DNA from: a virus
DNA: 64,000 nt
Reading direction: 5' to 3' (one strand)
Virus record (IMG/VR): IMGVR_UViG_3300048838_000238
Coordinates: 1-64,000 of that record
In this document: positions 901 through 61,755 of the stretch, piece after piece
Numbering within the stretch: the first letter of the stretch is position 1
Layout of the letters: each line of letters begins with the position of its first letter
Translations under genes and position numbers: made by a program
The notes under the pieces: model-generated
Databases searched by the model: none
Told to the model about the DNA's origin: nothing
Seen by the model: only the letters and a program-made list of their open reading frames with translations

Positions 901-937
901 TATTCGCCGCCGCGTGGACTATATTGGAGTGATATAG
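901..937 (-). promoter_or_regulatory. Sigma28-like promoter (CCAA-N15-GGCGAATA) with palindrome 919-937 over the -35
   Basis: tattcgcc at 901, ttgg at 924, ctatatt-ggagt-gatatag at 919-937. Confidence 0.75.
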
Positions 938-938
938 G

Positions 939-1493
939 CTAAAAATCTAGCAGAAATTCGCGGAGCAAGTCCAGTAGGCGCGGTTCGTCTGAATGGCGAT
1001 CGTTCCACGGGCGCGGCGCGAGCCAGACGCGGCCACCGAATCTCTGGAATTCTCGACAGTTTCCAGCGTAGTCGTCGATCAGCAGCGACTCGGGAGAAGC
1101 ACAGAACCACTTCGGAGGCGCGCCGGCGCGGCTCCTGCAACTCAGCAGCACCGGGATCTCGGGGTAGTGCCGCTCGGCCCAGGCCCGCTTTCCGTCGGCG
1201 CAGCCCTGATACTTGGTCGGAGAAGTCAGAAAGCAGACGCCGTCCTTGCCGAACGTCCGCAGTGCCAGATCTACGATCCGATCGGCTTCCTCGGTCTTTG
1301 GCAGACCGGCCCAGAAGTCTTGATCCAGCGGCCCCCAGAATGTTTCAGAGTCCATGCCAACCAGCGGACACGGATCATAGACGAGTTCGCCGCGATGTCC
1401 TCCGACTCGATACGGACACGGCAGCTTGTGAAACTCGCTTGCGCCGCGCATCACGTCCGCGACTACGCCGTCCATGTCAAGCAAGCATTTCAT
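939..1493 (-). CDS. HAD-family 5'(3')-deoxyribonucleotidase-like protein
   Basis: N-terminal LDMDGVVAD, central FLTSP, LLIDD and RPWN motifs. Confidence 0.8.
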   Translation of the reverse strand: MKCLLDMDGVVADVMRGASEFHKLPCPYRVGGHRGELVYDPCPLVGMDSETFWGPLDQDFWAGLPKTEEADRIVDLALRTFGKDGVCFLTSPTKYQGCADGKRAWAERHYPEIPVLLSCRSRAGAPPKWFCASPESLLIDDYAGNCREFQRFGGRVWLAPRPWNDRHSDEPRLLDLLREFLLDF

Positions 1494-1496
1494 CGG

Positions 1497-1943
1497 CTAC
1501 TCCGTTGTCGGCGGTGGTTCCGGCGGTGCCGGGGCGGCGACTGACTCGAATGGGAACAACCGGGGATCGAAAGGAATGTCCAGGAGTTCAGCAGGTAGCT
1601 TACCTTCTTTGACCCAGATTGTGGTCTGAATCGCGCAGGCGACATTCCACATCGCCATCGGCAAGTGCGGCTCGTCTTGCCAACCAGAGACTGCCTTGGC
1701 AAGGTGCCGCGAAGCGCTGTCGAGATAGCGAGAAATCGGGATACCGGCTTCCCAGTTACGGTCGCCGTACTTCAGACAGCCGGTTTCGTAGACGCAGGCC
1801 AGTTGATGCAACGCGCCGTAGGGTACGAGGTCGAAGCGGCCTTTGCCTAACTGGACGTCGCGTACCGCGCCGGTGCCGAACTCTTGCCGCTCGCCTGAAT
1901 CCTTGAACTGCATCGCGAGAACAGCCGCCTCTAATTCCGTCAT
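1497..1943 (-). CDS. dATP/dGTP diphosphohydrolase-like protein (DUF5664)
   Basis: DSGERQEFGTGAVRD...KGRFDLVP...GCLKYGDRNWEAGIP...SASRHL...HL; start placed at 1943 because of an ATGA overlap. Confidence 0.8.
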   Translation of the reverse strand: MTELEAAVLAMQFKDSGERQEFGTGAVRDVQLGKGRFDLVPYGALHQLACVYETGCLKYGDRNWEAGIPISRYLDSASRHLAKAVSGWQDEPHLPMAMWNVACAIQTTIWVKEGKLPAELLDIPFDPRLFPFESVAAPAPPEPPPTTE

Positions 1944-2065
1944 GTCCCAAGTTCCACCATCCAAAGTTGAATCAGCACAGTTGCCAAGATGAATATAGCA
2001 AGCCCTTGCGGAGTGATCGGCGGCAGCCGTCCGCAGTCGTCCGTCACAATTAAATCCACCGTCAT
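1940..2065 (-). CDS. 41-aa single-pass membrane peptide (not in the ORF track)
   Basis: MTVDLIVTDDCGRLPPITPQGLAIFILATVLIQLWMVELGT; ATGA overlaps with both neighbouring genes. Confidence 0.6.
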   Translation of the reverse strand: MTVDLIVTDDCGRLPPITPQGLAIFILATVLIQLWMVELGT

Positions 2066-3222
2066 CGCAGCGCCTCGACATTCACTGTCGTGCGGGCGCA
2101 CTCGCCGTGATCGCGATTAAAGACGATGCTGCAAATGTCCCGTGGCGAACGGTAGCCAGCACCGTGCGCATAATTGTCGCCGGGGATCAGCGTCCGAAAG
2201 CTCTCGATCTTTTGCGAGCCAATGTCTTTGCGAGTGTCATGGTGGACATGCCCGGTCAGCCACCGTCGATGCTTGCACCGGCCCCACGCTTCGGCCTTGT
2301 CTTCGCACATCACTCGATACAACGCTTCCGGCTTGCACTGGTGTCCGTGGTGAATGCCGATGAGATTCTGCCCGAATTCGTACCAGTGAAAAACGTCAGG
2401 GGAAGTGTCTACGGTTAGTCGAGGATCTCGGCTGTAATAGCCCTCGATGACCATACTCAGCATGATTGAGGTCTGGTCGTCGTGATTGCCGATCTCATTG
2501 ATGACGTGGACTTTCTTGTGCTTCTCCAACGCGCGGTCGATCAGATACCGCATGATGGTGACGCCGACGCGAGTCACCTTGGCCCACCGCGTATCGACGT
2601 CCAAGTGGTGACCGCTCCGGCGAGTCAGATTCTCAGTCGTGTCCGTGTGGAACCAATCGCCAAGATTTACGATCAGCGCCTGATCGGCAGCGGGAGTTGC
2701 TGCCAATACTTGGTCGAACCCGTTTGTCATCAACTGAGTTGCGATCTTCAGGTCGTAATCTTCTCCAGCATCTTCATCCCAGCAGTAGAGCCCGATATGG
2801 GCATCGCCGATCGGATAGACCGCCAACTTATCTTTGACCGTCACCTTCGGCTGCTTTGATCGTTTGGCCGGCTTCACCGACTGGCAGATCGAAGTGGCCA
2901 GTTCTTCGGAGAAGATCTTCAGCCGGTCTTGATCGGCGGTCGTCTTCACCCATTGGAGCTTCTGGACGCCGTCTGCGTCGTACAGCGTCGAAGTGCCTTT
3001 GACGTAGTGCGTCTCGGGACACATCTTCGTCATGTCGTGCTCTGGCGACCAGCCTTGCAGTGCTGCCTTTTTCTTCACCGCCGCGTAGTGCCGATGAGCT
3101 GCCGCCTTGTCGATGCCCAGCTTCTTGCCGATCTGTGCGTAACTCATCACGCCGACCAGAGCACACACTTCGCGTTGCCGCTCCGTGGTGGCGAAGTCAC
3201 TCAGATCGCTGACGGCTGCCAT
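2062..3222 (-). CDS. Calcineurin-like metallophosphoesterase with N-terminal HTH
   Basis: GDAHIG, LGDWFH, GNHD, HHGH and GHVHH motifs; N-terminal SYAQIGKKLGIDKAAAHRH. Confidence 0.85.
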   Translation of the reverse strand: MAAVSDLSDFATTERQREVCALVGVMSYAQIGKKLGIDKAAAHRHYAAVKKKAALQGWSPEHDMTKMCPETHYVKGTSTLYDADGVQKLQWVKTTADQDRLKIFSEELATSICQSVKPAKRSKQPKVTVKDKLAVYPIGDAHIGLYCWDEDAGEDYDLKIATQLMTNGFDQVLAATPAADQALIVNLGDWFHTDTTENLTRRSGHHLDVDTRWAKVTRVGVTIMRYLIDRALEKHKKVHVINEIGNHDDQTSIMLSMVIEGYYSRDPRLTVDTSPDVFHWYEFGQNLIGIHHGHQCKPEALYRVMCEDKAEAWGRCKHRRWLTGHVHHDTRKDIGSQKIESFRTLIPGDNYAHGAGYRSPRDICSIVFNRDHGECARTTVNVEALR

Positions 3223-3252
3223 ACTGCTGATTCCGTTCAGGTCGGGGGGTCG

Positions 3253-3555: not shown

Positions 3556-3575
3556 CTCGCCACGGCAGGATGCGA

Positions 3576-3935: not shown

Positions 3936-3975
3936 TGGCGCTGCCTCGTATCTGCCTTTAGAGTTGAGCGATTGA

Positions 3976-4507: not shown

Positions 4508-6550
4508 TTATGCAGCCACTCCAAGTCCATCCAGTTGCAAGAACTGCTCTTTCGTCAATAGAGTGACTCCAGCTTGGCTTCCGCACGGCTCCCACGGCTT
4601 GGCAAGATTCGGTGGCAGCATAACCTCACGGCAGCACCACGCGCCGCCTGTGCCCATCTTCCCTGGCGAGTCGTAAAGATAACCATCTTCCCCACGTCCG
4701 TGGCCGTATGAGTCGAGATACTTGCAGATCGCTTGGTTCTTATTCCAAACCGCCTGCAAGCCTGCGATTGAATGCCCGCTACGTCCGTAGCAAACTCCCC
4801 AACCACGAATCAGCGCGGACACGAATTGCTCGTACGATTCGATCGCGTACCATTCCACAACCGTGAACCATTGAGCGATGTCTTCCCAGCCAGCCTTAAA
4901 GTAACTTCGCCCGTTCCCGGAAATGAACGGCGTATTTTGGTGAACGCAGAAGTCACCGAACATCGCAATGTTACGCGGGTTCTTCTCGGGGAGCTGGCCA
5001 TTCCCGCGAACGCCAGCCTTGAGGATCTGCAAGGCACCCCACATCGTTGATCCGCTACCACGGCGAGTCGTTACGCGACAGTAGCTCGACATCGGCGAGC
5101 ACTTGACGGACCACTTCTCGCCGATCTGCTTGTTGCGCATCGTATCGCGGACAACTTCCGCAGCGTTATGCACGCAGTTATGAACTCCAATCCCCTCGGC
5201 AACGTAGGAGTTGTCGCCTTCCACTTCCATGTTATAGACGTCGCCCGTGAATGCTTCCGTTTCAACGGATCGAACTCGTCTCCACACATGCTTGTCTTCG
5301 CGACGAAAGAATCGACCGTTGCCGACATCCTTTTTTCTCGGTGTCTTCCTGAACATGACGTCCCATCGCGGAAGTCGTTTCTTGACACCATGACTTGCCT
5401 TTGGATTCGACAAGCGAATCTGAGGATTGTAACCAAGGGCGTTTGCGATATCCCACATTGCCAACGCTAGATCGCGAGACACCGTGACACCCTGCCAATT
5501 GTCGTCGTAAGTTCGGTCGTGACCGTCTCCTGACATCCAGCCAAACAGCAGCGACTCGACGAATTCGGCTGGGCCGCTAAGCAAGTCCGCGTGGGGCTTC
5601 TTATTTCCAGCGCCACCGGGACCACATAGCGACTCAAATAGCCTAGCCCATTGAGTGCCTTGAACATGAACTTTACATGTGTTGGCACACTCGCGAATTT
5701 GAATCCGCCCTTCTACGCCCCACGCATCTCGCAGTAAATCCACCAGTTCTTGCGCCAAAGTGTCACGTTCTGTGATCGAGAACGTCCACGTAACCTGACC
5801 CTTATTTGTCGATCCCTCAGATAAGAACAGGCCGAAGATTCTCCCTGCGGCTGCGTCCAATGAAATCAAGTCGGGAACAACGTGCTTTGTGTACTCGATG
5901 CACGTCTTATCTTTCGCAAGAGGGCCTGTGTTGAATTTCCTTTTCCCGTACGTTTCCCTCGTCGCATAATGACGCTTCAGAACGGTCAGATGCGCAGACG
6001 TCTGCAAGACGCTACTCGACACAGGCAAGTAACGAGGTATGGCAACAAAGTCACCAGACTTGATGTCACCAGCCTTAACGTATCCATGATCCGTTAACAC
6101 CGGATGTTCCTTGGTCATCTTCAATCCGCGATGACCAAAAAGCTTCATATTTACCAGCTCTTTTGGTTCATGCCTGATGAACAGATGAGTGACGCGGCCG
6201 ATGTTCCTTTCGGCAGTCAACACCTTCTCTCCAAGCCTGATTTCGTCGATCGGCTTGTTCGATCCGTCCGCCATTCGAACGCGAGTTCCCTTCGGAAAGC
6301 AGCTTGACTCCGGGGCCTGATTGTTCCGCGCCTTGCGGAAAAACGGCAACGCGGTTTTCTCACGCTCCGCCTGCTCGATGCGGTCTTTCCATTCGTCACG
6401 AGGCACGAGCCAGTCTGAACTGAAACTCGGCGCGGCCGACATTTCGGCTGGGTCGATGATGAGCCCGCAAAAACCTGGGATGGCCTTTGCGTCCCGATCA
6501 AAGTCGACGTCAATCAGATTCGGATTGACTTGGAATAAATCAATTGCCAT
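4508..6550 (-). CDS. Papain-like (C1) cysteine peptidase interrupted by an intein
   Basis: Spliced extein reads NQAPESS/CVHNA (Q..SC motif), with SGHSIAG (His) and LDSYG (NSWG equivalent). Confidence 0.8.
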   Translation of the reverse strand: MAIDLFQVNPNLIDVDFDRDAKAIPGFCGLIIDPAEMSAAPSFSSDWLVPRDEWKDRIEQAEREKTALPFFRKARNNQAPESSCFPKGTRVRMADGSNKPIDEIRLGEKVLTAERNIGRVTHLFIRHEPKELVNMKLFGHRGLKMTKEHPVLTDHGYVKAGDIKSGDFVAIPRYLPVSSSVLQTSAHLTVLKRHYATRETYGKRKFNTGPLAKDKTCIEYTKHVVPDLISLDAAAGRIFGLFLSEGSTNKGQVTWTFSITERDTLAQELVDLLRDAWGVEGRIQIRECANTCKVHVQGTQWARLFESLCGPGGAGNKKPHADLLSGPAEFVESLLFGWMSGDGHDRTYDDNWQGVTVSRDLALAMWDIANALGYNPQIRLSNPKASHGVKKRLPRWDVMFRKTPRKKDVGNGRFFRREDKHVWRRVRSVETEAFTGDVYNMEVEGDNSYVAEGIGVHNCVHNAAEVVRDTMRNKQIGEKWSVKCSPMSSYCRVTTRRGSGSTMWGALQILKAGVRGNGQLPEKNPRNIAMFGDFCVHQNTPFISGNGRSYFKAGWEDIAQWFTVVEWYAIESYEQFVSALIRGWGVCYGRSGHSIAGLQAVWNKNQAICKYLDSYGHGRGEDGYLYDSPGKMGTGGAWCCREVMLPPNLAKPWEPCGSQAGVTLLTKEQFLQLDGLGVAA
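5177..6301 (-). mobile_element. 375-aa intein with LAGLIDADG homing endonuclease
   Basis: Block A CFPKGTRVRMADG, block B MTKEHPV, endonuclease motifs FGLFLSEGS and LFGWMSGDG, block F VYNMEVEG, block G GIGVHN/C. Confidence 0.95.
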
Positions 6551-7893: not shown

Positions 7894-7912
7894 TTATATC
7901 GGCGCGATATAA
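7894..7912. promoter_or_regulatory. Palindromic operator-like site with no adjacent promoter motif
   Basis: ttatatc-ggcgc-gatataa. Confidence 0.65.
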
Positions 7913-8769: not shown

Positions 8770-8796
8770 TATTCGCCGCGATCGCGGTTTTCTTTG
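8770..8796 (-). promoter_or_regulatory. Sigma28-like promoter 6 nt upstream of the ATG (possibly leaderless)
   Basis: CAAA-N15-GGCGAATA. Confidence 0.65.
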
Positions 8797-9045: not shown

Positions 9046-10182
9046 CTAATCGCGGCTAAGCGGCATCACCACGTACTTGTAACCGTCCAACTCAAACAGC
9101 ACGGCGCTGTCGCCGTCTCGGATGTGCATCGCGATCCCTGAGTCGCCGGCCACCTTCAGAAACTCCGCCACGAAAGTGTGGTCCAGAGTGATCGTTATGG
9201 GCTCGACTCCGTCTTGGCCGACAATCGGCAATTCAACGTGAGACTTCCCGACTTCCGCTGTATCGCAGGAGACCTCTAGCGTGCCGTCCGAGAACGTGAA
9301 TTCCATGCCTTTCGATTCTTGCGTGGCCACAATGGCGGCTTGCCTGACCGCCGATAACAGCACTGCCGCTGGCAAGTCGATGGTGCGGCAGCCGTCCGTG
9401 CTCGGTAGCACGTCGCGCCACTTCGGAAACTTTCCTTCGACCAGCCGCGAATAGAGCCGCACTCCAGCCGCCACGACGACAATGTGGTTTTCGTACACCG
9501 CGAGCGTGGCCTCGCCTGAATCCGGCAAGACTCGTTGGATCGCGCGTAGTGCCTTGCCGGGCACGATGGTCGTCAGCACGCTTGGCCCGCGTTCTTTCGC
9601 TGCTGCCGCCAGAGGCGCGGTGACTCGCGTTACCGCCAAACGTCTGCCGTCGGTCGCGACTCCCACTAACTCGTCATTGTCTCGGTCCAGCAGCACGCCA
9701 CCCAGTGCATACCGTGACGAGGTTTCATCGCACGCGAAGATCGTCCGCGAGATGAGTTGCCGCAGCGGTCCCGCCGGAACTTGGCAGCACTCGCCATCTT
9801 CGGTTCCAGTCGCGACATTCGGAAATTCATCCGGGTCCATCGTCGGCAGTTTCAGCTGGCTCCGCTCGCCGGATACCGTCAGAGGATCGCCGATCTCTCC
9901 GCTGTCGAGCGTCATGGATTCATCGCGGCATTCGCCGATCATCTTGGTGAACTCAGCTGGCGGCAGCAGCATCGCGCCGCACTGGTCGCCGGATACCTCG
10001 CATCCTTCGACCTCGATACTGACACCAATTTCCAAGTCAGTTGCATTCAGCGTCACGCCCTCTGGGCCGACGATCAACTTGACTTTGGACAGAATCGGCT
10101 TGGGGCAGTTCTTGGATGCCGCTACTGAGGCGGCCACGGCGAATGCCTTTTGCATCTTGGATCGGTTAAACGTGAGTCGCAT
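9046..10182 (-). CDS. dnaN: DNA polymerase III beta sliding clamp
   Basis: KPIL, ATDLEIG, SRYALGGVL, VATDGRRLA, SRLVEGKFPKWRDV, YVVMPL; 378 aa. Confidence 0.95.
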   Translation of the reverse strand: MRLTFNRSKMQKAFAVAASVAASKNCPKPILSKVKLIVGPEGVTLNATDLEIGVSIEVEGCEVSGDQCGAMLLPPAEFTKMIGECRDESMTLDSGEIGDPLTVSGERSQLKLPTMDPDEFPNVATGTEDGECCQVPAGPLRQLISRTIFACDETSSRYALGGVLLDRDNDELVGVATDGRRLAVTRVTAPLAAAAKERGPSVLTTIVPGKALRAIQRVLPDSGEATLAVYENHIVVVAAGVRLYSRLVEGKFPKWRDVLPSTDGCRTIDLPAAVLLSAVRQAAIVATQESKGMEFTFSDGTLEVSCDTAEVGKSHVELPIVGQDGVEPITITLDHTFVAEFLKVAGDSGIAMHIRDGDSAVLFELDGYKYVVMPLSRD

Positions 10183-11344: not shown

Positions 11345-11716
11345 TTAGCCGAAGAGGCTTGTTTGAATATGTCGTTTTGATATATGTGATTCGCCGGCAG
11401 TTGCTGGTTCTTGGGAAGGTTGTTCTTTAATTCTCGGTGCCGGTTTTGGTGCCGGTTTCGGATTCACCGCGACTGCCGCTACACCCAGGGGCTCGGTCGG
11501 CTGATCGCCTTGCGCCGCTTCCATGAGCCTACTGGACCGGCCTCCGTCGATCGACTCGTAAGCGATATGGCCGTTGCAATTCTTGCAGAGGATGTAGACC
11601 CAGCGCGGATTCTGCGCCGCTACTTTCTTCCAGTTCACCGGATCTCGGTGATTCAGGCAGATGCGGACTCCGCGTTGGCTAGCCAGCGTCACTGTTTTAT
11701 TTTGCTTCCGTGACAT
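11345..11716 (-). CDS. Hypothetical zinc-ribbon protein
   Basis: CLNH...CKNC. Confidence 0.5.
   Translation of the reverse strand: MSRKQNKTVTLASQRGVRICLNHRDPVNWKKVAAQNPRWVYILCKNCNGHIAYESIDGGRSSRLMEAAQGDQPTEPLGVAAVAVNPKPAPKPAPRIKEQPSQEPATAGESHISKRHIQTSLFG
11367..11414 (-). promoter_or_regulatory. Promoter (11388-11414) plus operator (11367-11385) upstream of DUF1257
   Basis: CCAA-N15-GGCGAATC; atatgtc-gtttt-gatatat. Confidence 0.7.
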
Positions 11717-15009: not shown

Positions 15010-15057
15010 GTATAGCAGGGTGATATAGGTTATTCGCCTCGCGGGACGGAATCTTTA
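15010..15057 (-). promoter_or_regulatory. Promoter TAAA-N15-GGCGAATA (15031-15057) plus operator (15010-15028)
   Basis: Minus strand taaagattccgtcccgcgaggcgaataacctatatc. Confidence 0.8.
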
Positions 15058-15573: not shown

Positions 15574-15621
15574 TAGTATCAGTTCGATATAGGTTATTCG
15601 CCGCGTGAGACAGAATCTTTA
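15574..15621 (-). promoter_or_regulatory. Promoter TAAA-N15-GGCGAATA (15595-15621) plus operator (15574-15592)
   Basis: Minus strand taaagattctgtctcacgcggcgaataacctatatc. Confidence 0.8.
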
Positions 15622-15963: not shown

Positions 15964-17454
15964 CTACTCCAGTTCGATGGCCGCTCTTTGAGTCGGCTGG
16001 ATCATCTGTGCCGCGCCAGCCTTGCGGTAGAAACCGCGATATGACGCCGACAAGTACCGTCCGTCGCAACCGTCACGCAAAGCGTCGATTTGCTCGCCAG
16101 CACTGCGCGACACCGGCACGATGTAGTCCGCTGCTTGCTTGAGCGTGATCCCTTGCAGGTATGCCAGTTCACAGCAGTTCTCGATTTCGGCGCCGGTCCA
16201 GCCGCTGTCGACCGGCTTGTTCATGATGTACTTGCCGGGCAGCTCGTACTTGCCGATGTACATGGCCCAAATCGAGTCGCGCTCTTTATCGGTCGGCAAG
16301 TCAAAGAAAAACGTGCCGAGCTTAAACCTTCGGCGCAATTCTGGTTTGAGTGACTGAATGGAATTGCACGTTGCCACCCAGATCGCGTTACCGTTGGAAA
16401 CACTGGTGATGACCTTCAGCGCCTGTCGAATGGTCTTCTCTGATTCCCCGACGAGGCTTCCCTTGGCACTTCCCAGGTCTAACTGGATGGTCGGAACGCC
16501 CGCTTCGTTGCCGAGTGACTTCGCGACGGCGCTCTTGCCGGAACCGGCTGGTCCCAGGAAGATCGCGCCGCGGCTGCGCCGGTCCTGCATGTACGTCAGC
16601 AAGCAGCCGAGTTGGTCTTGCGAAACTCCAGACGTGTCGCCTTCGCCGCCGAGCGCCTTTTCGATCTCATCCAGGAAGATTATCGCGTTCGGGCGGGCCG
16701 GGCCGGATATGACGCGACCAAGGAATTCCTTGACGTTATCGTAGCCGCCGATGTCCTTGAACCGATTTCCTTCGCGCCACACACTGAGCGCCGGGCACTG
16801 TTCGATTTGCTGCCGCTTCCGCTCCCACAGGTCGTCGACATGAATACCTTCACGGGTGAAGCTCATCGCGATAGCCTGTTCAGCAGCAAACGCTGACAGC
16901 CCTTGTACGGCTTCGACGGCGCGAACTCGCGTTTCATCCGGCACCGGCACCTGCGCTGCGACCGATACCGAATCAACCACTTGACCGAGTTGCTCGCCGG
17001 TGGGGAGCGGATCGTCCAGGCATAACACGTCGTTTTGCAACTCGGCTGGCAACCGGAAGTCTGGACCAAGTAACACGAGCGTCCGCTTGTCACCCTTGAA
17101 TAAGTCGCGGACATTGCAGATCGCCTGCAAGAAGTCGACTTTCTCCAGGAAGCGATTTCCCATGTGGATGAAGAAGATCGTTTTGGCTGGCAGCCGTTCG
17201 CCGGCCAGAACTGCAAGCTGTTCGTTGCCAGCGGTCGCATCTGCTAGGTCGCCGACGGCGCCCACGGCCTCTAGTCCCAGGTCGTTAATCGCTTTCATGC
17301 CGCGCATCACGTCCCACTGGACGATTGGTGTATTGCCGTTGCTAACTTCCAGGATACGGTTAATGATCGCGGTCGGATCGGGGGTGCTGATTGCCATCAG
17401 CGGAACGGCTGCGTTACGGGCGGCTTTGAATTGTTTGAGAATATCGGCAGACAT
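15964..17454 (-). CDS. Ycf46-like AAA+ ATPase
   Basis: Degenerate N-terminal AAA domain, DIGGYDNVKEFL, FLDEIEKA, Walker A GPAGSGKS, GSLVGESE, LKPELRRRF..FFFDLP, GWTGAEI. Confidence 0.9.
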   Translation of the reverse strand: MSADILKQFKAARNAAVPLMAISTPDPTAIINRILEVSNGNTPIVQWDVMRGMKAINDLGLEAVGAVGDLADATAGNEQLAVLAGERLPAKTIFFIHMGNRFLEKVDFLQAICNVRDLFKGDKRTLVLLGPDFRLPAELQNDVLCLDDPLPTGEQLGQVVDSVSVAAQVPVPDETRVRAVEAVQGLSAFAAEQAIAMSFTREGIHVDDLWERKRQQIEQCPALSVWREGNRFKDIGGYDNVKEFLGRVISGPARPNAIIFLDEIEKALGGEGDTSGVSQDQLGCLLTYMQDRRSRGAIFLGPAGSGKSAVAKSLGNEAGVPTIQLDLGSAKGSLVGESEKTIRQALKVITSVSNGNAIWVATCNSIQSLKPELRRRFKLGTFFFDLPTDKERDSIWAMYIGKYELPGKYIMNKPVDSGWTGAEIENCCELAYLQGITLKQAADYIVPVSRSAGEQIDALRDGCDGRYLSASYRGFYRKAGAAQMIQPTQRAAIELE

Positions 17455-17482: not shown

Positions 17483-17530
17483 CTACATCGTAGTGATATA
17501 TGTAGTTCGCCGCGAGATGCACGATATTGG
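17483..17530 (-). promoter_or_regulatory. Promoter (17504-17530) plus operator (17483-17501) upstream of the AAA gene
   Basis: CCAA-N15-GGCGAACT; ctacatc-gtagt-gatatat. Confidence 0.7.
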
Positions 17531-19651: not shown

Positions 19652-20074
19652 TTATTCGCCGCGACCTGGCGTATATCGGAACGATATAGTCTCAGTCCGA
19701 AAGAATTCCACAATGTGCCGCAGCACTTCCATTTCGTCAATGGAGTCGGCCGCGCGGCCGCGCAAGGTATTCAGCAAGACGCGGTCGTAATGCTCAAAAT
19801 CCACGAGCGCCTTGAGCGCGTACTGCCTGGCTAGAGGCCAGATCGCGTAGTCTCCGAATTCATCGTGATGGGCGCGGCACGGAAATAGCCAAGCAGCGCG
19901 TTCTTGATAAGCGGCTTCACGGATTCCGCTGCCACGGGTTATCTCGTGGATGTCGCTACCGCGAGATTTGCACCTCGGGACCGGGCAGCGAAAGAGCATG
20001 TCCGCGCGAAAGGTCTCTCTGGCGTCTTCCATCTGGCGGACTACCTTCCGGCGCTTAGTGCTTTGGTGCCGCAT
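19652..20074 (-). CDS. HNH-like zinc-binding protein
   Basis: CPVPRC...DIHEITRG...FPCRAHH. Confidence 0.55.
   Translation of the reverse strand: MRHQSTKRRKVVRQMEDARETFRADMLFRCPVPRCKSRGSDIHEITRGSGIREAAYQERAAWLFPCRAHHDEFGDYAIWPLARQYALKALVDFEHYDRVLLNTLRGRAADSIDEMEVLRHIVEFFRTETISFRYTPGRGE
19653..19689 (-). promoter_or_regulatory. Promoter (19653-19679) with operator over the -35 (19671-19689)
   Basis: CCGA-N15-GGCGAATA; gtatatc-ggaac-gatatag. Confidence 0.7.
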
Positions 20075-23939: not shown

Positions 23940-23987
23940 CTATATCCTTACGATATAGGTCATTCGCCGCAAGACGGTGAATCTTGC
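23940..23987 (-). promoter_or_regulatory. Promoter (23961-23987) plus perfect operator (23940-23958)
   Basis: GCAA-N15-GGCGAATG; ctatatc-cttac-gatatag. Confidence 0.8.
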
Positions 23988-27112: not shown

Positions 27113-28708
27113 TCATGCCGCTTGCCCGTAAATCTCTGCCCGCAGTTCGCCGTCCGAGCATTCAGCGGTCAAGATCGTCACGCCGTACATTTCGGCCAGA
27201 TCGGCAACGTGGTCGCGGTTTCCGGGATCAAGGTCTTGCCAAGCGTCTTGGTCCAGAATTAACAATCTGGTGCCGTCGCCTTCCGCCTCTCCGACCGCCT
27301 TGGCGCCGATCCGAATCGCCTCTGTCCAGCGTTCGCCAACCGAGAGCCTCGCAAACGGTTCTTCGCGCTCGTCTCGCTTGACTAACCAGCGCCCGCCAGA
27401 GAATCGCAGGCCGTCGATCTTGACCGCTGCCGAGAGCAAACCATCGGCTTGATCGGCTGCTGTACGCAGGGATGCGGCGACGGCAGCGATGCCGGACGCT
27501 TCCTTTGCCAGCTTATCGGCAGACGCTTTAATCTCTTGAGCTTGCCGAATCTTGTAGCCGACGGATTCGCGCTCCCGAGCGACTGTCAAATCCTGCAAGG
27601 ACTTGTCGAGTTCCTCTTGGCTTGGTCCGGCAATCGTGTTCAGCGTGACGGTATCTTGCAGGGCCGCGATCGACGCCTCGGTTTCTTCGGCGCGCAGCAC
27701 GCGCTGTTCGGCCATCTTGCGGCGCGATTCAGCTTCGGCAAGCTGTTCCTTCGCCAATTGCAGCGAGGCTTCCGCCGCCTTCACGAGGTCTTGAAAGCCC
27801 GTCACTTCCTCTGCGGTTCTGGCCAAAACGGCTTTCTCGGCGTCCAGGGAAAGCCCGGTCGCCGCGCGATGTACCTTGAGCTTTTCAAGTTCTTCCTGTG
27901 CGGCCTTCGCGGCTTGCGATTGCCGCTCGGCAGACCGCCGCTGCTCGTCCAGGCTCGTGTGACGCTTCAGCGCCGCTTCCACGTCCCGTTGGAGTTCTTC
28001 GCGGTCCCACTCCTGAGTCAGGTCAAGGTTGCCAGCGTTGGCCATGTCCTGTTGCGTCCGTGCCGCGTCGGCCTTGGCTTTGGCGTCTTTCTCTTGACGC
28101 AGCGCAGCCTGCTGAACCGCCCTCTTGAACATCGCATTGATCGTCACGAGGTCGCCAGCCTCTTCGGCGGCTGCCAGTGCTTCGGCATCCACCAAATCGG
28201 TAGCAGCTTTTGGGATCAATTCGCGGAACCGCTCGAAGGGCACCGATGCGCCGGTGATCTGGACCAACGCCAAGAGCCGCTTAGCGTCCGCCGCTTCCGG
28301 GTCAATCAACCCAGGATCGACGATGGTGCTCAAGTCAAAGCGGTCCTCGATATGCACGACTTCCAGTTCTTCCGGTCGCGCGCCGCTGTGCCGAACCTGT
28401 TTGGCAATCGTGGTCCGGCCGCCGAAGGCTTCGACGTAGCCGGTCCCGAGCGAGTCGTTGGCCGTGAGGCTGGTGACTTTCATCCCTAGTCGCGTTCGGA
28501 CGGCATTCAAGCAGGTTGTCTTGCCAGAGCCGTTTTTGCCCTTCAAGACCACGACGCAGCCTTTCTCAGGGATCGGAATCGTGCGGTGGGTAACGAGCCC
28601 CAGGCCGTCGATTTCAATGACGGAAGTTGTGCCGACGTTTGGTAACGTCGGCTGTTGCTTTGAGTTTTTCTTCTTGGTGCTCGCACCGTTCGTTGTGGAC
28701 GTTGCCAT
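27113..28708 (-). CDS. SMC/Rad50-like ATPase
   Basis: Walker A GKNGSGKT, long coiled coil, signature LSVGER, Walker B LLILDQD. Confidence 0.85.
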   Translation of the reverse strand: MATSTTNGASTKKKNSKQQPTLPNVGTTSVIEIDGLGLVTHRTIPIPEKGCVVVLKGKNGSGKTTCLNAVRTRLGMKVTSLTANDSLGTGYVEAFGGRTTIAKQVRHSGARPEELEVVHIEDRFDLSTIVDPGLIDPEAADAKRLLALVQITGASVPFERFRELIPKAATDLVDAEALAAAEEAGDLVTINAMFKRAVQQAALRQEKDAKAKADAARTQQDMANAGNLDLTQEWDREELQRDVEAALKRHTSLDEQRRSAERQSQAAKAAQEELEKLKVHRAATGLSLDAEKAVLARTAEEVTGFQDLVKAAEASLQLAKEQLAEAESRRKMAEQRVLRAEETEASIAALQDTVTLNTIAGPSQEELDKSLQDLTVARERESVGYKIRQAQEIKASADKLAKEASGIAAVAASLRTAADQADGLLSAAVKIDGLRFSGGRWLVKRDEREEPFARLSVGERWTEAIRIGAKAVGEAEGDGTRLLILDQDAWQDLDPGNRDHVADLAEMYGVTILTAECSDGELRAEIYGQAA

Positions 28709-28974: not shown

Positions 28975-29022
28975 CTATATCTACACGATATAGGCTGTTC
29001 GCCGCAAGTCGGAATATCTTGG
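28975..29022 (-). promoter_or_regulatory. Promoter (28996-29022) plus perfect operator (28975-28993)
   Basis: CCAA-N15-GGCGAACA; ctatatc-tacac-gatatag. Confidence 0.8.
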
Positions 29023-30598: not shown

Positions 30599-30646
30599 TT
30601 ATGTCATCTCGATATAGGTCATTCGCCGGTCGCGATTGAATCTTGG
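30599..30646 (-). promoter_or_regulatory. Promoter (30620-30646) plus operator (30599-30617)
   Basis: CCAA-N15-GGCGAATG; ttatgtc-atctc-gatatag. Confidence 0.8.
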
Positions 30647-33798: not shown

Positions 33799-33857
33799 CA
33801 CACTTCCTTGCAGGCAACAGGCACGCTTTCCTGCGCGAGCCACGATGAAATAAAACG

Positions 33858-34046
33858 CTATGCGGCGCGACGCCATCCGCGCCGCATAGCGAGAAGAGAA
33901 CTACCGCCCTCTTGCGAATCCTTCCATCGCCGATTGACAGTCCATGAGACACGCGCCATCCGGTTCCCTCCGCGCGCTTCGGCGATTCCACTTAACAGGA
34001 CAGAAGTCTTGGTCGCGCTCCTTGCGGTTTCTCGGTCAGTTTCCAT
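33858..34046 (-). CDS. Hypothetical basic protein
   Basis: 62-aa ORF between the promoters and the sigma gene. Confidence 0.3.
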   Translation of the reverse strand: METDRETARSATKTSVLLSGIAEARGGNRMARVSWTVNRRWKDSQEGGSSLLAMRRGWRRAA

Positions 34047-34080: not shown

Positions 34081-34204
34081 CTATGTCAGTGTGATATAGG
34101 CTATTCGCAGCGACTCGGGGAATCTTGGATTGAGTTTTCAGGAATTTCCCTATATCAAGGTGACATAGCTTACGAACTATTCGCTGCGCGTCAACATATC
34201 TTTG
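34081..34204 (-). promoter_or_regulatory. Tandem promoters (34102-34128, 34178-34204) and operators (34081-34099, 34150-34168) upstream of the sigma/recombination operon
   Basis: CCAA-N15-TGCGAATA and CAAA-N15-AGCGAATA; ctatgtc-agtgt-gatatag and ctatatc-aaggt-gacatag. Confidence 0.8.
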
Positions 34205-34228: not shown

Positions 34229-35359
34229 TTATTCTTGAACAGCCGCGCCGAACAGCCATCCGCGAACGTGATCGGCGACAGCGCGCAACCGCCGATCTTC
34301 AATGTTCTCGCGATACATGCCTGATATCGTGTTGTCCGAATGCCCCATGATGGCGCGAGTCGACAAGTAATCGCCGTGCTGGTCGCCGATCGTCTGGAAG
34401 CCGTGACGTAATGCGTAGAAGCCGCGATTCGCCTCATAGACATCTTGGGACACGCAGAGCTTTTTGAACTCCGCCGACAAAGGATTTGCTTTGGAATCGG
34501 TGAACCAGCATTGGCCGCGCTTCGTGCGGAACACCAGCGGATCGGTGTCGGACTTGCGTGATTCGAGCGCCGCCTGCAACGCCCCGACTGTCTCGGGCCA
34601 CAATGGGCAGCGCCGCGCAATCCCGGTCTTCGGCCTCGGGTAGTCGATCCAGCCGTTTTGCATGTCAAGAGCGCTCACCGGAAGTTGCCCGCAGTCCCCG
34701 TTCCCGAACCCGCAGTTGATCGCTAGCAGGATCATGGCTTTCATCTGGACGTCGGCGGCAGCGATCAGCTTGCGAATCTCGACTGCGTTGAACAGTTTGC
34801 TTCCGGCCTTAGCCTTTTCGCGCCTGGTGACCCTCTTGGCAGGCCGTTTGAAATCCCCGAACCGGACTGGCTTATCGATCAACCCGTTCTCAAACCCATA
34901 CCTCAGAATCACCCGACAGCGAGTGACTTCGTTCCCTAGACTGGTCGCGTTCATGGTCTTCGACAAGGCGCGGCGGAGCTTCATCAAATCATGCGGCTGC
35001 AACTCCTGAACCACGGATGCCTTACCGAGATGCTCGATCATCCGTTCGCACGACTTGTAGTAGTCGTCATACGTCCGGTGGGCAAGTTCGCCACCGTCAC
35101 GCTTACTCTTCGCGTTCGTCATGAACGAGTTACAGAGCGTCATTAGGTCGCAGGCATCGCCGTCGAAGATCCGTGGTGACCGCCCGGACAGAAGATCGTC
35201 CTTGACGCGCAGCCATTCGGCTAAAGCTTTATCAGGGTCCGTGCCGAAGTAGAAGTCGCGGCCTCGAATCCGCTTGCGATACTGACCGGTCTTGTGGAGT
35301 CCCAACGGGAACTTATCGGCCCGCTTGCCCTTACCTGCTTCCGGATTAGAATTGTCCAT
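34229..35359 (-). CDS. int: Tyrosine integrase
   Basis: Arm-binding YRKRIRGRDFYFG, PRPKTG, FYALRHGF, IMGH, ISGMY; adjacent to a tRNA-derived attP. Confidence 0.92.
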   Translation of the reverse strand: MDNSNPEAGKGKRADKFPLGLHKTGQYRKRIRGRDFYFGTDPDKALAEWLRVKDDLLSGRSPRIFDGDACDLMTLCNSFMTNAKSKRDGGELAHRTYDDYYKSCERMIEHLGKASVVQELQPHDLMKLRRALSKTMNATSLGNEVTRCRVILRYGFENGLIDKPVRFGDFKRPAKRVTRREKAKAGSKLFNAVEIRKLIAAADVQMKAMILLAINCGFGNGDCGQLPVSALDMQNGWIDYPRPKTGIARRCPLWPETVGALQAALESRKSDTDPLVFRTKRGQCWFTDSKANPLSAEFKKLCVSQDVYEANRGFYALRHGFQTIGDQHGDYLSTRAIMGHSDNTISGMYRENIEDRRLRAVADHVRGWLFGAAVQE

Positions 35360-36319: not shown

Positions 36320-36577
36320 TCACTTGAAGAACTGAATTACGTCGCGTCTGACCTTGCGACGTTTCTTGACTGGAGTGGCCGGAGCGGCGACAGTGCGGAT
36401 GTCTTCAAACGCCTCCAGCGCCTCCGATGTTACGATGTACCGCGACCTCCCGGAAGTCTTGGTTCGGATATCGATCGCCGTTAGTTGCCCTGATCTGACT
36501 AGCGTCAAGACGTGGCTATGGCAGCAGCGCCACCGCTCTGCGATCTCTGCCAAGGTGTAAGAGGCTTGCGCGGTCAT
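36320..36577 (-). CDS. xis: Excisionase-like HTH protein
   Basis: YTLAEIAERWRCCHSHVLTLVRSGQLTAI...RYIVTSEALEAF; near int and attP. Confidence 0.78.
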   Translation of the reverse strand: MTAQASYTLAEIAERWRCCHSHVLTLVRSGQLTAIDIRTKTSGRSRYIVTSEALEAFEDIRTVAAPATPVKKRRKVRRDVIQFFK

Positions 36578-36954: not shown

Positions 36955-37375
36955 TCGTCCCTTCTGGAGTCCCGTTCGTAGTCCGCTTTATCGGCGCGGT
37001 CTTCGTCGTGTAGGCGGCGTTGCTCGCGCTCGTCCGCTTCGTCTTCTGCGTTGGAGGTTCGCCAAGCGTCATAGCTTGCAGGTAGTCCGTCTTGCATCGA
37101 TCTTTACCTCAGTAGAGTTTCAGTGACAGCGGCATAAACCGCCGTTGCTCGCGTATGGTCCGTTAGGTCCGACAGGATCATCGGATGTGTAATGCTCTCC
37201 TGGAATTGCGTACCATCCGTCGCCGTCCGGGTGCGTTACCAATTCCGCCACAGTCCCACATCGCGTGATGCCTCTTGGCTTGTACGGCGCTCAAACTCGC
37301 GACACTAGGCACCGTATCTGCTATCTCGTCACTCGCACCAGATCTATGCTTTTAGCGTGACGTGATTTGAAAAAG

Positions 37376-37448
37376 TTGCGGGCCTTGGAATCGCACCAAG
37401 TTTGCTCTGCTTATGAGACAGAGAAGATGACTACACCTACCGCCCGCA
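37376..37448 (-). tRNA. tRNA with CAT anticodon (elongator Met or Ile2), atypical T-loop
   Basis: Acceptor stem TGCGGGC/GCCCGCA; anticodon arm TCTGT-CTCATAA-GCAGA; T arm CTTGG-TGCGATT-CCAAG. Confidence 0.75.
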
Positions 37449-37736: not shown

Positions 37737-37773
37737 AATTCGCCCGTCGCAGAACTATATTGGATTGATATAG
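37737..37773 (-). promoter_or_regulatory. Promoter (37737-37763) with operator over the -35 (37755-37773), upstream of the tRNA/xis block
   Basis: CCAA-N15-GGCGAATT; ctatatt-ggatt-gatatag. Confidence 0.75.
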
Positions 37774-49123: not shown

Positions 49124-49142
49124 CTATATCCCTAAGATATAG
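49124..49142. promoter_or_regulatory. Perfect palindrome upstream of the 1502-aa gene
   Basis: ctatatc-cctaa-gatatag. Confidence 0.7.
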
Positions 49143-49974: not shown

Positions 49975-49993
49975 TTATATCAGATCGCTATAG
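49975..49993. promoter_or_regulatory. Palindromic operator-like site just upstream of the ATG
   Basis: ttatatc-agatc-gctatag. Confidence 0.55.
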
Positions 49994-52626: not shown

Positions 52627-52674
52627 TTATATCTGATTGATATAGGTTATTCGCCGCGCGCTGAACAGTATTGG
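52627..52674 (-). promoter_or_regulatory. Promoter (52648-52674) plus operator (52627-52645)
   Basis: CCAA-N15-GGCGAATA; ttatatc-tgatt-gatatag. Confidence 0.8.
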
Positions 52675-54624: not shown

Positions 54625-54719
54625 CTATATCACCTAGATATCACCGCTTAGTTCTTGAAACTCCAGTCGGCGAGTTGCTTGCGTCTATAGGGTATTCGCC
54701 GCTGATATCAGGATCTTGG
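54625..54719 (-). promoter_or_regulatory. Promoter (54693-54719) and operator (54625-54643)
   Basis: CCAA-N15-GGCGAATA; ctatatc-accta-gatatca. Confidence 0.75.
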
Positions 54720-54828
54720 TCGGAATTAGCGGTTCTTTCCAGTGACTGAACACTCGTTCATCTACATTCAGACCACCCACTTTTGCTATCATCACGAAAG
54801 ATACAGACGAACTCTACGGGAGACGAAC

Positions 54829-55770
54829 ATGAGACACCTTCATTTCCTGATAGTGACCGCGATTGCCGCGTCCGCGTTCGGTCAGGGGCTATCTCCAACA
54901 GACGCATATGTTGAAGCGCACCACCGGCACTACGAGGCGCGGCGTGCAGAACTCATAGAAAAGCTGGCCGAAGCGACCGCCGAATACCAGCCGATTCGCG
55001 ATGCCAAAGTTGATCGCCGCGCGGAGTCGCTGGCTGCCTTGACGGTAACTTTCGGAGAAGGTGCCGACGCCGTCCAGTGGTTTGAAGACGAAAATGATGC
55101 CGTCTACTTTAGAACAGCTCGCGAGAAACGCTCTGTCACCGAAAGGTACGAACGACTCTACATTGATCCACGAAAAAAGGAACTTGCCGACTTGCCATTG
55201 ACGTACACAGACGAGCGTCCGTCGATGCCGTTTTCTGGCTCGCACCCAGGAATCATCCGGTGGAAGCCTTACGTATTCCAGGTAATCGACGACGACGAAG
55301 TGCTTTTGCGAGTCTTCAAGGACACCATTTTGTACTTCAAAGGCGTAGCGACTGAAGGCATGGTTGACGGCGAGTACATCAACTTAGATGGAGCGTATCA
55401 CAGTACCGGCACAACAACCTACCAGACTGCCTCCGGTGGATCGAAGACTGTCCGTGTGATCGAGCCGTTCGATACGTCCTCGGCTGATGCCATTATCTCA
55501 GAAAAACACGTTGAATTCTTGGACCGTCTAACCGCCGAGATGAAGAAATTAACCGCCGCAAATAAGAAGGAGACGGCAGACATTCGCGAATCCCTTACCC
55601 GCGAATTCACCGACATCACCGGCACATTCAAAGTGAAAGCCGAATACGCCGGGTACGCTAGCGGAAACGTCCGTCTCAAAAAAGAGAACGGCGAAACCAT
55701 TAGCGTTCCACTGGCAAAGCTGTCGGATACCGACAGACGGTGGGTCGCTGAACAAACCGCGAGGGATTAA
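54829..55770 (+). CDS. Secreted protein with C-terminal SHD1 domain (moron)
   Basis: Signal peptide MRHLHFLIVTAIAASAFG; REFTDITGTFKVKAEY...VRLKKENGETISVPLAKLSDTDRRWV; extended -10 TGcTATCAT at 54784-54792. Confidence 0.8.
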   Translation: MRHLHFLIVTAIAASAFGQGLSPTDAYVEAHHRHYEARRAELIEKLAEATAEYQPIRDAKVDRRAESLAALTVTFGEGADAVQWFEDENDAVYFRTAREKRSVTERYERLYIDPRKKELADLPLTYTDERPSMPFSGSHPGIIRWKPYVFQVIDDDEVLLRVFKDTILYFKGVATEGMVDGEYINLDGAYHSTGTTTYQTASGGSKTVRVIEPFDTSSADAIISEKHVEFLDRLTAEMKKLTAANKKETADIRESLTREFTDITGTFKVKAEYAGYASGNVRLKKENGETISVPLAKLSDTDRRWVAEQTARD

Positions 55771-60116: not shown

Positions 60117-60135
60117 TACGTGATTGTATCACGAA

Positions 60136-60202
60136 GAAAAAAGCCGCCCGCGCCGCTGACTAACCTTACGGGGCCGGTTGCGATGCCGGCGCGGCGCGGG
60201 CT
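60136..60202 (-). terminator. Intrinsic terminator-like structure ending the moron
   Basis: Minus strand gcccgcgccgc...gcggcgcgggc-ggctttttt with inner stem gccgg/ccggc. Confidence 0.6.
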
Positions 60203-60267
60203 AAGGATCGCATCTATGCGGACCATCCGAGCGAGCGGGCCTTGTCCAGGATGGCGGACTCATCCGC

Positions 60268-60561
60268 CTAATCCCACCGCTGACGCTGTTGTTGCGCGAC
60301 ATGCTCGCGCTGCAACCGCACCTCGTACCACACCGGCTCCGTGACGTGGTGCCTGTGCTCCTGATGTGTGAGGGTGTTTCCTCCCAACACGTATTCACGG
60401 TCGCCGTCGACCGCTACCGAACCAATCAACTCGTGTGCGTGCCCAGTCCGCTCGCCTGCGATGCGAATGCCAACGCGGCCTTCCTGGACTTGCGCACCGG
60501 TCGGCAACTCGCCAACCGGAACCAACAACACGTCACCCTGCCTGATTGCCACTGCATTCAT
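60268..60561 (-). CDS. Conserved His-rich small protein (DUF6745 partner)
   Basis: RQGDVLL...GERTGHAH...LTHQEH..YEVRLQRE. Confidence 0.75.
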   Translation of the reverse strand: MNAVAIRQGDVLLVPVGELPTGAQVQEGRVGIRIAGERTGHAHELIGSVAVDGDREYVLGGNTLTHQEHRHHVTEPVWYEVRLQREHVAQQQRQRWD

Positions 60562-60562
60562 C

Positions 60563-61651
60563 TTAGCTCTCTCTTTCTGGACGGTACTCGTCCGGATTCA
60601 TTGAAAATGTCCATGCCACGGCAGCACGGATACGTTGTGATGCCGTCTCGCCAGAACGAAGCGGCATTGCGAATTGGGCTGGCACACCGATGCGGTGTTG
60701 CTGTCCGGTTGACGGGCAGCGGACACAGACTTGAGCCTGCGAGACTCGGGCCGTCGTCCCATCGACAGTACGATTAGTAATGATCGCGCCGTCATCGCTG
60801 GCACAAACCAACACCGGGTTCCATATGCTGATTGCGTCGTCTTCTCCGCGTGGACCGAGCCAGTCTAGTAGTCGCAAGTCATCACTATTAGACTCGCGAT
60901 CATGGTCGCCATCGCGGCGAGAAGAGAAGGTGCGGTAGACCGCGATCTGCTCGTACCAAGGTACCGCAGTCCAGTCTCTATTATCCCACAGGGATGCCTG
61001 GTGCTGCGTGCCGAACACGCGGGCCAGCGTGCCGATCGCAGCGCGGCGACCAGCATTGCGAGCGCCTAGTGGTCGATTTGTGTTGTATTCCTCATTGGCT
61101 TGCAACGCAAGATCCGCGAGTGCAACCCGCAGCCCCCAACCGGCCAAGATGCGATTAGCGGTGCGGCGCGCCTCACGTAGCCATCGCTCAGCCAGTCCAG
61201 GTGACTGGAATCGCTGAGCTACGTTTACTGGCGAAACCAAGCAAGCCGGGCTGCCAATTCCCCGCGGACTAATACCGCGAGTGAATACCGCCGACAGTAA
61301 AGGGTACTCCGGCACCGCCCGCAGCCACCCGCAGACGCGGCGGGCATGGGAGTAGACGCGGTCCACCTCACATAGAGTTGACTCGCTCCACCGTGCAGAC
61401 CAATGGCATGGCACGCCGCTAATCAGATACCCGTGTCCCCAGTTGCGGGGCAGCTTCTCTTGCATTTCACGCGGCCAGTACATGACCGCGTTCTCTAGCC
61501 ATCTCTCAATCACGGCTCGCCGAATGAATGGCGAGCGACTCGGAGACTGGGCGTGATGCCATCGGACATGCCGGCGACCGAATGCACCGGGCGTGCGAAC
61601 GGGGCGGTCTACAGATAGATGATCTCGGACTTCGGCGGTAAGTACACACAT
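60563..61651 (-). CDS. Protein with DUF6745-like C-terminus
   Basis: VCVRCPSTGQQHRIGVP...AAVAWTF...YRPERES; AAGGAG RBS before ATG 61651. Confidence 0.65.
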   Translation of the reverse strand: MCVLTAEVRDHLSVDRPVRTPGAFGRRHVRWHHAQSPSRSPFIRRAVIERWLENAVMYWPREMQEKLPRNWGHGYLISGVPCHWSARWSESTLCEVDRVYSHARRVCGWLRAVPEYPLLSAVFTRGISPRGIGSPACLVSPVNVAQRFQSPGLAERWLREARRTANRILAGWGLRVALADLALQANEEYNTNRPLGARNAGRRAAIGTLARVFGTQHQASLWDNRDWTAVPWYEQIAVYRTFSSRRDGDHDRESNSDDLRLLDWLGPRGEDDAISIWNPVLVCASDDGAIITNRTVDGTTARVSQAQVCVRCPSTGQQHRIGVPAQFAMPLRSGETASQRIRAAVAWTFSMNPDEYRPERES

Positions 61652-61728
61652 CGTTGTCACTCCTTGTGGCTTCGCGGGCCACGGCTGCAACTCCATCAGT
61701 TGCCGATTTACGCTTGTTTCTTACAGGT

Positions 61729-61755
61729 AATTCGCCGCAATCCGGCGAATCTTGG
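61729..61755 (-). promoter_or_regulatory. Sigma28-like promoter with no operator
   Basis: CCAA-N15-GGCGAATT. Confidence 0.7.

Follow-up and report, generated by a model that had tools for sequence, protein, structure and literature searches.

A recurrent two-box putative promoter motif and a palindromic putative operator in a phage with probable Pirellulales hosts

Distribution and architecture of the two-box motif

The virus record IMGVR_UViG_3300048838_000238 of IMG/VR is 105,996 bp long, carries terminal repeats at its ends and has a GC content of 57%; the stretch analysed here (the window) is its first 64 kb. Within or bordering the intergenic gaps of this phage genome are repeated copies of a two-box motif, CCAAGAT-N12-GCGGCGAATA, which from its sequence most likely represents a bacterial-type promoter read by an alternative sigma factor of group 3 (sigma-28-like). 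About twenty groups of non-structural genes are preceded by this predicted promoter type, and the genome encodes a replication, recombination and modification set that includes DnaN, SSB, a RecT/Bet-like protein, a RecE-like exonuclease, an SNF2/DEAD helicase, an N6/N4 methylase, AAA and SMC-like ATPases, an integrase-like recombinase and a sigma factor. The copies in the window are listed below with their weight matrix scores; classes 1 and 2 differ in the position of a palindrome, the predicted operator, relative to the promoter.

901-927, minus strand: class 2 copy (palindrome over the -35 box), 30.0 bits; CCAATATAG-N11-GGCGAATA
8770-8796, minus strand: copy without an operator, 30.7 bits; GGCGAATAACTTCCATG
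11388-11414, minus strand: class 1 copy (operator over the start site), 29.1 bits; palindrome at 11367-11385
15031-15057, minus strand: class 1 copy with a TAAAG-form -35 box, 27.7 bits; palindrome at 15010-15028
15595-15621, minus strand: class 1 copy whose TAAAG takes in the stop codon (TAA) of the upstream gene, 31.1 bits; the gap opens TAAAGATTC
17504-17530, minus strand: class 1 copy with GGCGAAC, before an AAA ATPase gene (15964-17454, Pfam AAA), 34.2 bits
19653-19679, minus strand: class 2 copy with a CCGATATAC-form -35 box within the palindrome at 19671-19689, 35.2 bits
23961-23987, minus strand: class 1 copy, 31.1 bits; perfect palindrome at 23940-23958
28996-29022, minus strand: class 1 copy with GGCGAAC, 34.0 bits; perfect palindrome at 28975-28993
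30620-30646, minus strand: class 1 copy before a 136-amino-acid gene and a RecT/Bet-like gene (29024-30157, bet_lambda match), 30.5 bits
34102-34128, minus strand: proximal copy of a tandem pair before the sigma gene, with T at -15 (TGCGAAT), 34.0 bits
34178-34204, minus strand: distal copy of the tandem pair, with A at -15 (AGCGAAT), 26.0 bits
37737-37763, minus strand: class 2 copy, 29.7 bits; palindrome at 37755-37773
52648-52674, minus strand: class 1 copy before a small gene and genes for an HNH endonuclease and a DUF4942 methyltransferase (family matches), 34.7 bits
54693-54719, minus strand: copy followed by a half-site only, with a full palindrome (54625-54643) 50 nt downstream, 24.9 bits
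61729-61755, minus strand: copy with a degenerate operator in the tail-gene region, 35.5 bits; downstream CCTGTAAG

All 16 of the 27-mers that a first-pass annotation had listed were recovered on the minus strand at the left coordinates claimed for them. The pattern it had proposed, BMAA-N15-GGCGAAT, gives 11 matches, every one on the minus strand, compared with 0.34 expected from shuffled sequences (largest value 2), but it describes the set incompletely, since five of the listed copies are single-base variants that it does not fully cover: GGCGAAC (17504 and 28996), TGCGAAT (34102), AGCGAAT (34178) and CCGA in the -35 box (19653). Starting from the 16 copies, a weight matrix refined by iteration across all 105,996 bp returned 20 minus-strand sites of 24.9-35.5 bits, the next minus-strand site scoring 10.6 bits and the best plus-strand site 7.8 bits. 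The four additional sites lie past the window (77290, 100811, 103964 and 105126), and a weaker copy is present at 81945. When the two boxes were scored apart and the gap was varied by up to 4 nt each way, the native gap was observed at 20 sites, a gap 1 nt shorter at 98131 and a gap 4 nt shorter at a doubtful site (34449), with none on the plus strand. The spacer, which had been described as invariant, is fixed in 20 of 21 sites, 98131 being the exception.

Information content is concentrated in CCAA(G/T)AT and (C)GCGGCGAA(T/C)A(A)C, the spacer positions holding 0.07-0.5 bits. Because the spacer carries almost no information, the copies appear to have been kept by selection rather than to be recent duplicates. 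The strand bias on its own is weak evidence, because about 137 of the 142 called genes are located on the minus strand. Most copies fill short gaps, often from the stop codon of the upstream gene onwards, and the -10 box is typically about 40-50 nt from the next start codon. The earlier statement that each copy precedes a non-structural gene holds wherever a function is assignable, but no family match was obtained for several of the genes that follow, and three copies (61729, 54693 and 52648) sit within the tail-gene region.

In the open complex structure of Pseudomonas aeruginosa fliC, the sigma-28 promoter consists of (-36)TCTAAAG(-30) and (-15)GCCGATAA(-8); A-11 is flipped, G-12 is contacted by a residue conserved across group-3 sigma factors, and positions -15/-14 form an extended -10 element that these factors read (PMC12784957). 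The -35 box of the phage motif is CCAA(G/T)AT, which places AAG at about -32 to -30, and after a 14-nt gap the -10 box reads G-15 G-14 C-13 G-12 A-11 A T A-8. The 14-nt distance between AAG and G-15 is kept at 20 of 21 sites, and C-13/G-12/A-11 are invariant in all 20 matrix-scored copies and in a further four from two related genomes (G001 and G002, see below). Features shared with sigma-28 (FliA/SigD/WhiG) promoters are therefore the two boxes, AAG at -32 to -30, the 14-nt gap, G-15, the C-13/G-12/A-11 core and A-8, together with the lack of a sigma-70 -10 pattern. The phage motif differs from them in having CC for TA at the start of the -35 box (-34/-33), G for C at -14 and AT for TA at -10/-9, and in standing before phage replication, recombination and accessory genes rather than flagellar genes.

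Two copies, 15031 and 15595, do begin with TAAA, as had been noted, and these are the only two of the 16 with three or fewer mismatches over the 12 positions of TAAA-N15-GCCGATAA. The remaining 14 have four or five, so the motif is not the FliA/SigD consensus that the first-pass annotation had taken it for, although its regulon-wide geometry is sigma-28-like and not that of sigma-70. Judged on sequence, the promoter would work in the manner of the sigma-28/group-3 type, and the sigma-28 label appears to fit the architecture but not to hold as an assignment to that family.

Primary sigma factors need a T at -7 and a TAnnnT pattern, which a direct reading of GCGAATA does not reveal. Between 33000 and 38500, no TTGACA-N17-TATAAT-like site falls on any of the promoter copies, and none falls on the tandem pair. 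The only convincing plus-strand gene (54853-55770) has an ordinary extended -10-like sequence, TGCTATCAT, ahead of it (54780-54832, plus strand), an indication that standard sigma-70-type signals are in use in the host as well. A near-canonical sigma-28 site, TCAAG...GCCGATAA with one mismatch to TAAA-N15-GCCGATAA, is found at 27513-27539 (minus strand) in the coding region of an SMC-like ATPase and is probably a chance occurrence. Searches of the intergenic DNA for k-mer or dyad enrichment yielded no second, late-promoter motif apart from the palindrome; a 27-bp tandem array at the contig ends was the one further repeat.

A palindrome overlapping the predicted promoters

In most copies a 19-bp palindrome, CTATATC-N5-GATATAG, starts two bases past GGCGAATA. 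With up to three mismatches allowed the genome contains 29 matches (1.1 in shuffles), 25 of which are intergenic, and 28 were accepted. The palindrome of class 1 copies spans about -5 to +14, the predicted start site; in class 2 (901, 19653, 37737 and 77290) the -35 box is formed by its right arm. Many intergenic copies of one site overlap the predicted promoters, as in the repressor operator networks of temperate phages. Further examples within the window, listed without strand, are as follows.

919-937: operator over the -35 box of the 901 copy, 1 mismatch
7894-7912: intergenic operator with no promoter copy, 2 mismatches
34081-34099: operator over the predicted start of the 34102 copy, 1 mismatch
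34150-34168: operator between the tandem promoter copies, 1 mismatch
49124-49142: operator with no promoter copy, before a 1502-amino-acid FG-GAP (tail fibre-like) gene (Pfam FG-GAP_2), 0 mismatches
49975-49993: operator with no promoter copy in a 48-nt intergenic gap, 2 mismatches

The 28 sites show 38 departures from the palindrome consensus, of which 31 break pairing, five give G-U pairs and two are compensated, the 5-nt centre being free. Because the departures mostly break pairing, the palindrome is predicted to be a DNA site, bound by a dimeric protein, and an RNA hairpin was rejected on the same counts. Its right arm was also considered as a sigma-70 -10 box and discarded, as the arm is followed by T at only 11 of 28 sites and a -35 box is never at the right distance. 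A repressor would be the simplest reading of the binding protein, because the start-site and -35 geometries would both block RNA polymerase, and the predicted operator appears essential to how these promoters work. At 8770, where no operator is present, the ATG of an 87-amino-acid gene, whose product has no family match, starts 7 nt past the last base of GCGAATA, which suggests a candidate leaderless, unrepressed transcript and agrees with the predicted start site.

Eight palindromes stand alone without a promoter copy. Six of these precede the gene in the small-terminase position, the portal gene, and head and tail genes, in gaps that are often too short for another promoter; the remaining pair is located at 7912 and 102352. 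Just two proteins qualify as helix-turn-helix candidates, an excisionase-like HTH_17 protein (36320-36577) and a 59-amino-acid protein (genome positions 85768-85947, minus strand; L002:3768-3947), the latter scoring a little short of the cut-offs of many helix-turn-helix models (HTH_Tnp_ISL3, Sigma70_r4, HTH_11 and HTH_3). The gene for this small protein lies directly behind a lone palindrome and ahead of the portal gene, and on account of these matches and this placement its product is a candidate for the palindrome-binding protein.

The immunity repressors of cluster A mycobacteriophages bind about 30 dispersed stoperators, which are asymmetric 13-14-bp sites, bound by a monomer in an orientation-dependent manner (PMC9283540). 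The present phage, for which a repressor is predicted, has in common with them dozens of copies of one short site dispersed in short intergenic gaps, some over promoters and others alone before late genes, where they may stop elongation. It differs in that the site is a 19-bp palindrome with 7-bp arms and a 5-bp spacer, implying a dimer, and in that the repressor itself is so far a prediction.

The phage sigma factor, relatives lacking it and the genome setting

The sigma gene and the features around the tandem promoters are arranged as follows.

33115-33801, minus strand: phage sigma factor gene, divergent group-3 (Pfam Sigma70_r2 and r4)
33856-33891, minus strand: strong intrinsic terminator-like hairpin between the 62-amino-acid open reading frame and the sigma start codon, with a 15-bp stem containing 11 GC pairs, then TTTTATTTCA
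33858-34046, minus strand: 62-amino-acid open reading frame, the first gene after the tandem promoters, with no family match
34229-35359, minus strand: tyrosine recombinase (integrase-like) gene, upstream of the tandem promoters (XerA-type match, E = 2.5e-5)

This is the only locus in which both promoter and operator are doubled, and no other promoter for the sigma gene was found between 33000 and 38500. The presence of the integrase-like gene suggests that the phage is temperate.

The sigma protein belongs to the sigma-70 superfamily (TIGR02937, 48.6 against a cut-off of 42.9; Pfam Sigma70_r2, 29.7 against 24) and has both regions 2 and 4. It falls far below the cut-offs of the more specific families, reaching 19.2 bits against 189.6 for FliA_WhiG (NCBIfam TIGR02479, E = 8e-4) and 49.9 bits against 234 for SigB/F/G (NCBIfam TIGR02980, E = 3e-13), the latter still being the best specific family. 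In an aligned set of 50 sequences, comprising the phage protein and its 49 best relatives, SigB/F/G is matched by 49 (best E = 5e-88) and FliA/WhiG by 47 (best E = 1e-37). Against solved structures the phage protein scores about equally for SigF and WhiG and lower for FliA. Residues R80, R82 and D87 of region 2.4 contact the -10 core (PMC12784957); alignment to FliA (6pmi_F) and WhiG (6pfv) places Q, D and D at these positions, such that R80 and R82 are replaced and D87 is kept. The protein is accordingly not the sigma-28-class factor of the first-pass annotation; its sequence indicates a divergent group-3 factor, nearer to SigB/F/G than to FliA, and not a sigma-28 orthologue.

A full HMMER scan returned 232 sigma relatives, of which the only close one (P0002, 59% identity) is encoded on an 826-bp contig. 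Searches with the sigma protein revealed no close sigma-bearing relative with genomic context in the phage collection, IMG/VR or the JGI metagenomes, and there is no copy of the motif at L147, the locus of a distant relative.

Two complete IMG/VR genomes, G001 (52 kb, 45.5% GC) and G002 (57 kb, 48.9% GC), are distantly related to the phage through TerL (35% identity), SSB (55-58%), several tail genes and a 386-amino-acid protein. Each contains exactly two copies of TTCCAA(G/T)ATT-N11-(A/G)(G/A)CGAA(T/C)AAC, for which our own estimate of the chance expectation is about 0.007, and the reversed pattern, used as a control, is found in neither. These copies head early genes (DUF932, DUF7222 and DUF6717) that are divergent from terL. 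No sigma gene was detected in either genome with Pfam or with an unfiltered profile of the 50 sigma sequences. Because these sigma-less phages carry the same promoter at their early genes, a host sigma factor of Pirellulales is probably sufficient to read it. All of the copies except the first one in G001 precede a small palindrome of another sequence, AACTC..GAGTT, in the forms CTCTATAGAG, AACTC-TAC-GAGTT and AACTCA-G-TGAGTT (G001, L138:10861-11060; G002, L141:15397-17829). Since three of the four copies carry these differing palindromes, the layout of promoter plus private operator would be conserved while the operator sequence changes. Attempts to extend the group were unproductive: in IMG/VR the DNA pattern gave only single, chance-level matches, and the DUF932 gene as a query returned G001 and G002 themselves and nothing further. 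In searches directed at hosts, TerL against genome contigs found two Sphingomonas prophages only, and SSB against plasmids gave no planctomycete record.

The likely host range is indicated by the SSB of G001, which shares 70-76% identity with proteins bearing the names Pirellulales or Mariniblastus, and by the phage sliding clamp:

9046-10155, minus strand: DnaN sliding clamp gene, with three Pfam DNA_pol3_beta domains

All named best matches of this DnaN are from Planctomycetota (Pirellulaceae, Planctomycetaceae and Blastopirellula; 44-48% identity). These protein matches point to Pirellulales as hosts and bear out the earlier guess of a planctomycete. The packaging and head genes lie outside the window (TerL, 86519-88615; a portal-MuF fusion, 82132-85764). 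Tail genes extend from about 64 kb down to 38 kb and include those for the 1502-amino-acid FG-GAP protein and for a 1449-amino-acid protein in the tape-measure position. No match to a single-subunit RNA polymerase gene was obtained, but the control genomes of the same search also gave none, hence this is weak evidence.

Several other features of the genome were noted. No family, tRNA included, was recovered when the window was scanned against Rfam at the gathering threshold; ARAGORN calls a tRNA-Met (CAT) at 37375-37448 (minus strand), downstream of the 37737 promoter copy. The sequence at the two contig ends (window 1-177, genome 105720-105996) is a GGTGCCGCGTCCAACTCGGGCTACAGC-like tandem repeat of 27 bp, in at least 16 units, which reads in frame as 9-amino-acid repeats on the minus strand. 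In view of this array, the direct terminal repeats of the record may be an assembly product of an intragenic repeat array and not true genome ends. An intein with Hint and LAGLIDADG domains is located inside a 680-amino-acid protein (4508-6550, minus strand). Terminator-like GC hairpins with T runs occur at genome positions 70881-70971, after a 424-amino-acid gene (70972-72246), and in the window at 60117-60267 (minus strand), before the 1449-amino-acid gene; both would punctuate a long late transcription unit.

Assignment of the promoters to sigma factors and wider meaning

We infer promoter activity, start site, repression and the assignment of sigma factors to copies from sequence. We regard it as very probable that an alternative-sigma promoter is here gated by an operator. 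An alternative group-3 sigma factor would read the two-box promoter and transcription would start 7-8 nt past the -10 box, in the left arm of the palindrome in class 1. A dimeric phage DNA-binding protein, most likely a lysogeny repressor, would bind the palindrome and block the promoter, by covering the start site (class 1) or the -35 box (class 2), and the lone palindromes may also stop read-through into the packaging, head and tail genes.

The base at -15 suggests a division of the copies. It is G in 18 of the 20 copies, and T and A occur only in the tandem pair before the sigma gene, for which the random chance of both exceptions falling on that pair is 1 in 190; G001 and G002 have A at this position in all but one of their four copies. 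As this split singles out the promoters of the sigma gene and resembles what is seen in the relatives, it suggests a relay. The Pirellulales host sigma factor would read the basic form of the promoter and fire the tandem [A/T]GCGAAT pair; the phage group-3 sigma factor made in consequence would then fire the 18 GCGGCGAA(T/C) copies that precede genes for replication, recombination, DNA modification and accessory functions, with the terminator before the sigma gene adding a further gate. We advance this relay, from host sigma to phage sigma to 18 GGCGAA copies, tentatively and at a little under even confidence.

Phage sigma cascades are known from Bacillus phage SPO1 (gp28 and gp33/34) and from T4 (gp55), and phage sigma factors classically drive later stages of infection. 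The proposed relay shares with these the principle that a phage sigma-70-family factor, made from an earlier promoter class, redirects the host core polymerase. It would differ from them in that the private promoter set is distinguished from the host-read set by little beyond the extended -10 element, in the divergent group-3 nature of the sigma factor, and in the predicted repressor-type operators at the promoters of an apparently temperate phage.

A number of points weigh against this account. No clear gene for a cognate repressor was found. The -15 argument is drawn from a small sample, two promoters here and four in the relatives, and the lower GC content of the latter (46-49% versus 57%) could explain part of the difference. 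Because the predicted terminator separates the tandem promoters from the sigma gene, sigma expression from the pair would need read-through or antitermination. The sigma protein has no relative with usable genomic context, the close one being on the 826-bp contig. The host reader could be FliA, another group-3 factor or an unusual primary sigma factor, and, given that no late motif was found, the phage sigma factor could act on undetected sites.

The most serious alternative, in our view unlikely yet deserving attention, is that a host alternative sigma factor (FliA-like or another of group 3) is the sole reader of every copy and that the phage sigma factor serves some other set, for example late promoters. 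This would fit the use of the same promoter by sigma-less relatives, the inclusion of the sigma gene itself in the regulon, the precedent of SPO1 and T4 for action at later stages, and the lack of FliA R80/R82 in the phage protein although the promoters keep the CGA core. It leaves without explanation the tenfold greater number of copies here than in the relatives and the -15 split that marks out the sigma gene's own promoters, and apart from the palindrome there is no second shared motif before the late genes. The converse possibility, a closed positive-feedback loop in which the phage sigma factor alone reads every copy including the tandem pair, would account for the co-occurrence of 20 copies and a sigma gene in one phage and for the doubling of promoter and operator solely at the sigma locus. 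We consider it improbable, as such a loop has a start-up problem, no other promoter for the sigma gene having been found, and as the promoter type is also present in two complete phages without the factor.

It is more improbable still that the motif is the housekeeping promoter of Pirellulales hosts, recognised by a primary sigma factor with an unusual consensus. A primary sigma factor normally serves phage early genes, and a literature search gave no planctomycete promoter consensus with which to compare the motif; nevertheless, the relatives hold only two copies in 52-57 kb even when one mismatch is allowed, the convincing plus-strand gene has an ordinary extended -10 sequence in TGCTATCAT, and the -10 box offers neither the T at -7 nor TAnnnT. 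Least probable of all, and by our assessment very doubtful, is that the motif is not a promoter and represents either an asymmetric site to which a phage protein binds or a repeat that recombination has scattered through the genome. The two boxes at fixed spacing with a free spacer sequence, the constant distance to start codons, the position of the operator exactly where RNA polymerase would be blocked and the retention of the motif at the heads of early operons in distant relatives all argue for a promoter.

To our knowledge, almost nothing is known about the transcription signals of Planctomycetota and their phages. In this poorly explored phage-host system the regulon appears unusually clean, and it seems to combine elements of known kinds, namely alternative-sigma regulons, phage sigma cascades and dispersed repressor sites. 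The locus supplies a precise definition of a promoter (about 20 copies) and of an operator (28 sites), and a candidate two-sigma relay. The start of phage early genes by a host alternative sigma factor, as indicated by the sigma-less relatives, is unusual among phages.

A broader and rather unlikely generalisation is that Pirellulales phages routinely start infection from promoters of host group-3 (flagellar or developmental) sigma factors instead of the primary sigma factor, so that early expression would depend on the stage of the host, for example the swarmer, and that the present phage adds a surrogate sigma factor of its own through a change in the extended -10 element, which would free about 18 operons after a repressor- and terminator-gated switch. 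The link to the host life cycle is speculative; if true, it would couple the development of the phage to the physiology or cell stage of its host. The promoter-operator pair would in addition be a ready regulated expression part for planctomycete genetics, where tools are few.

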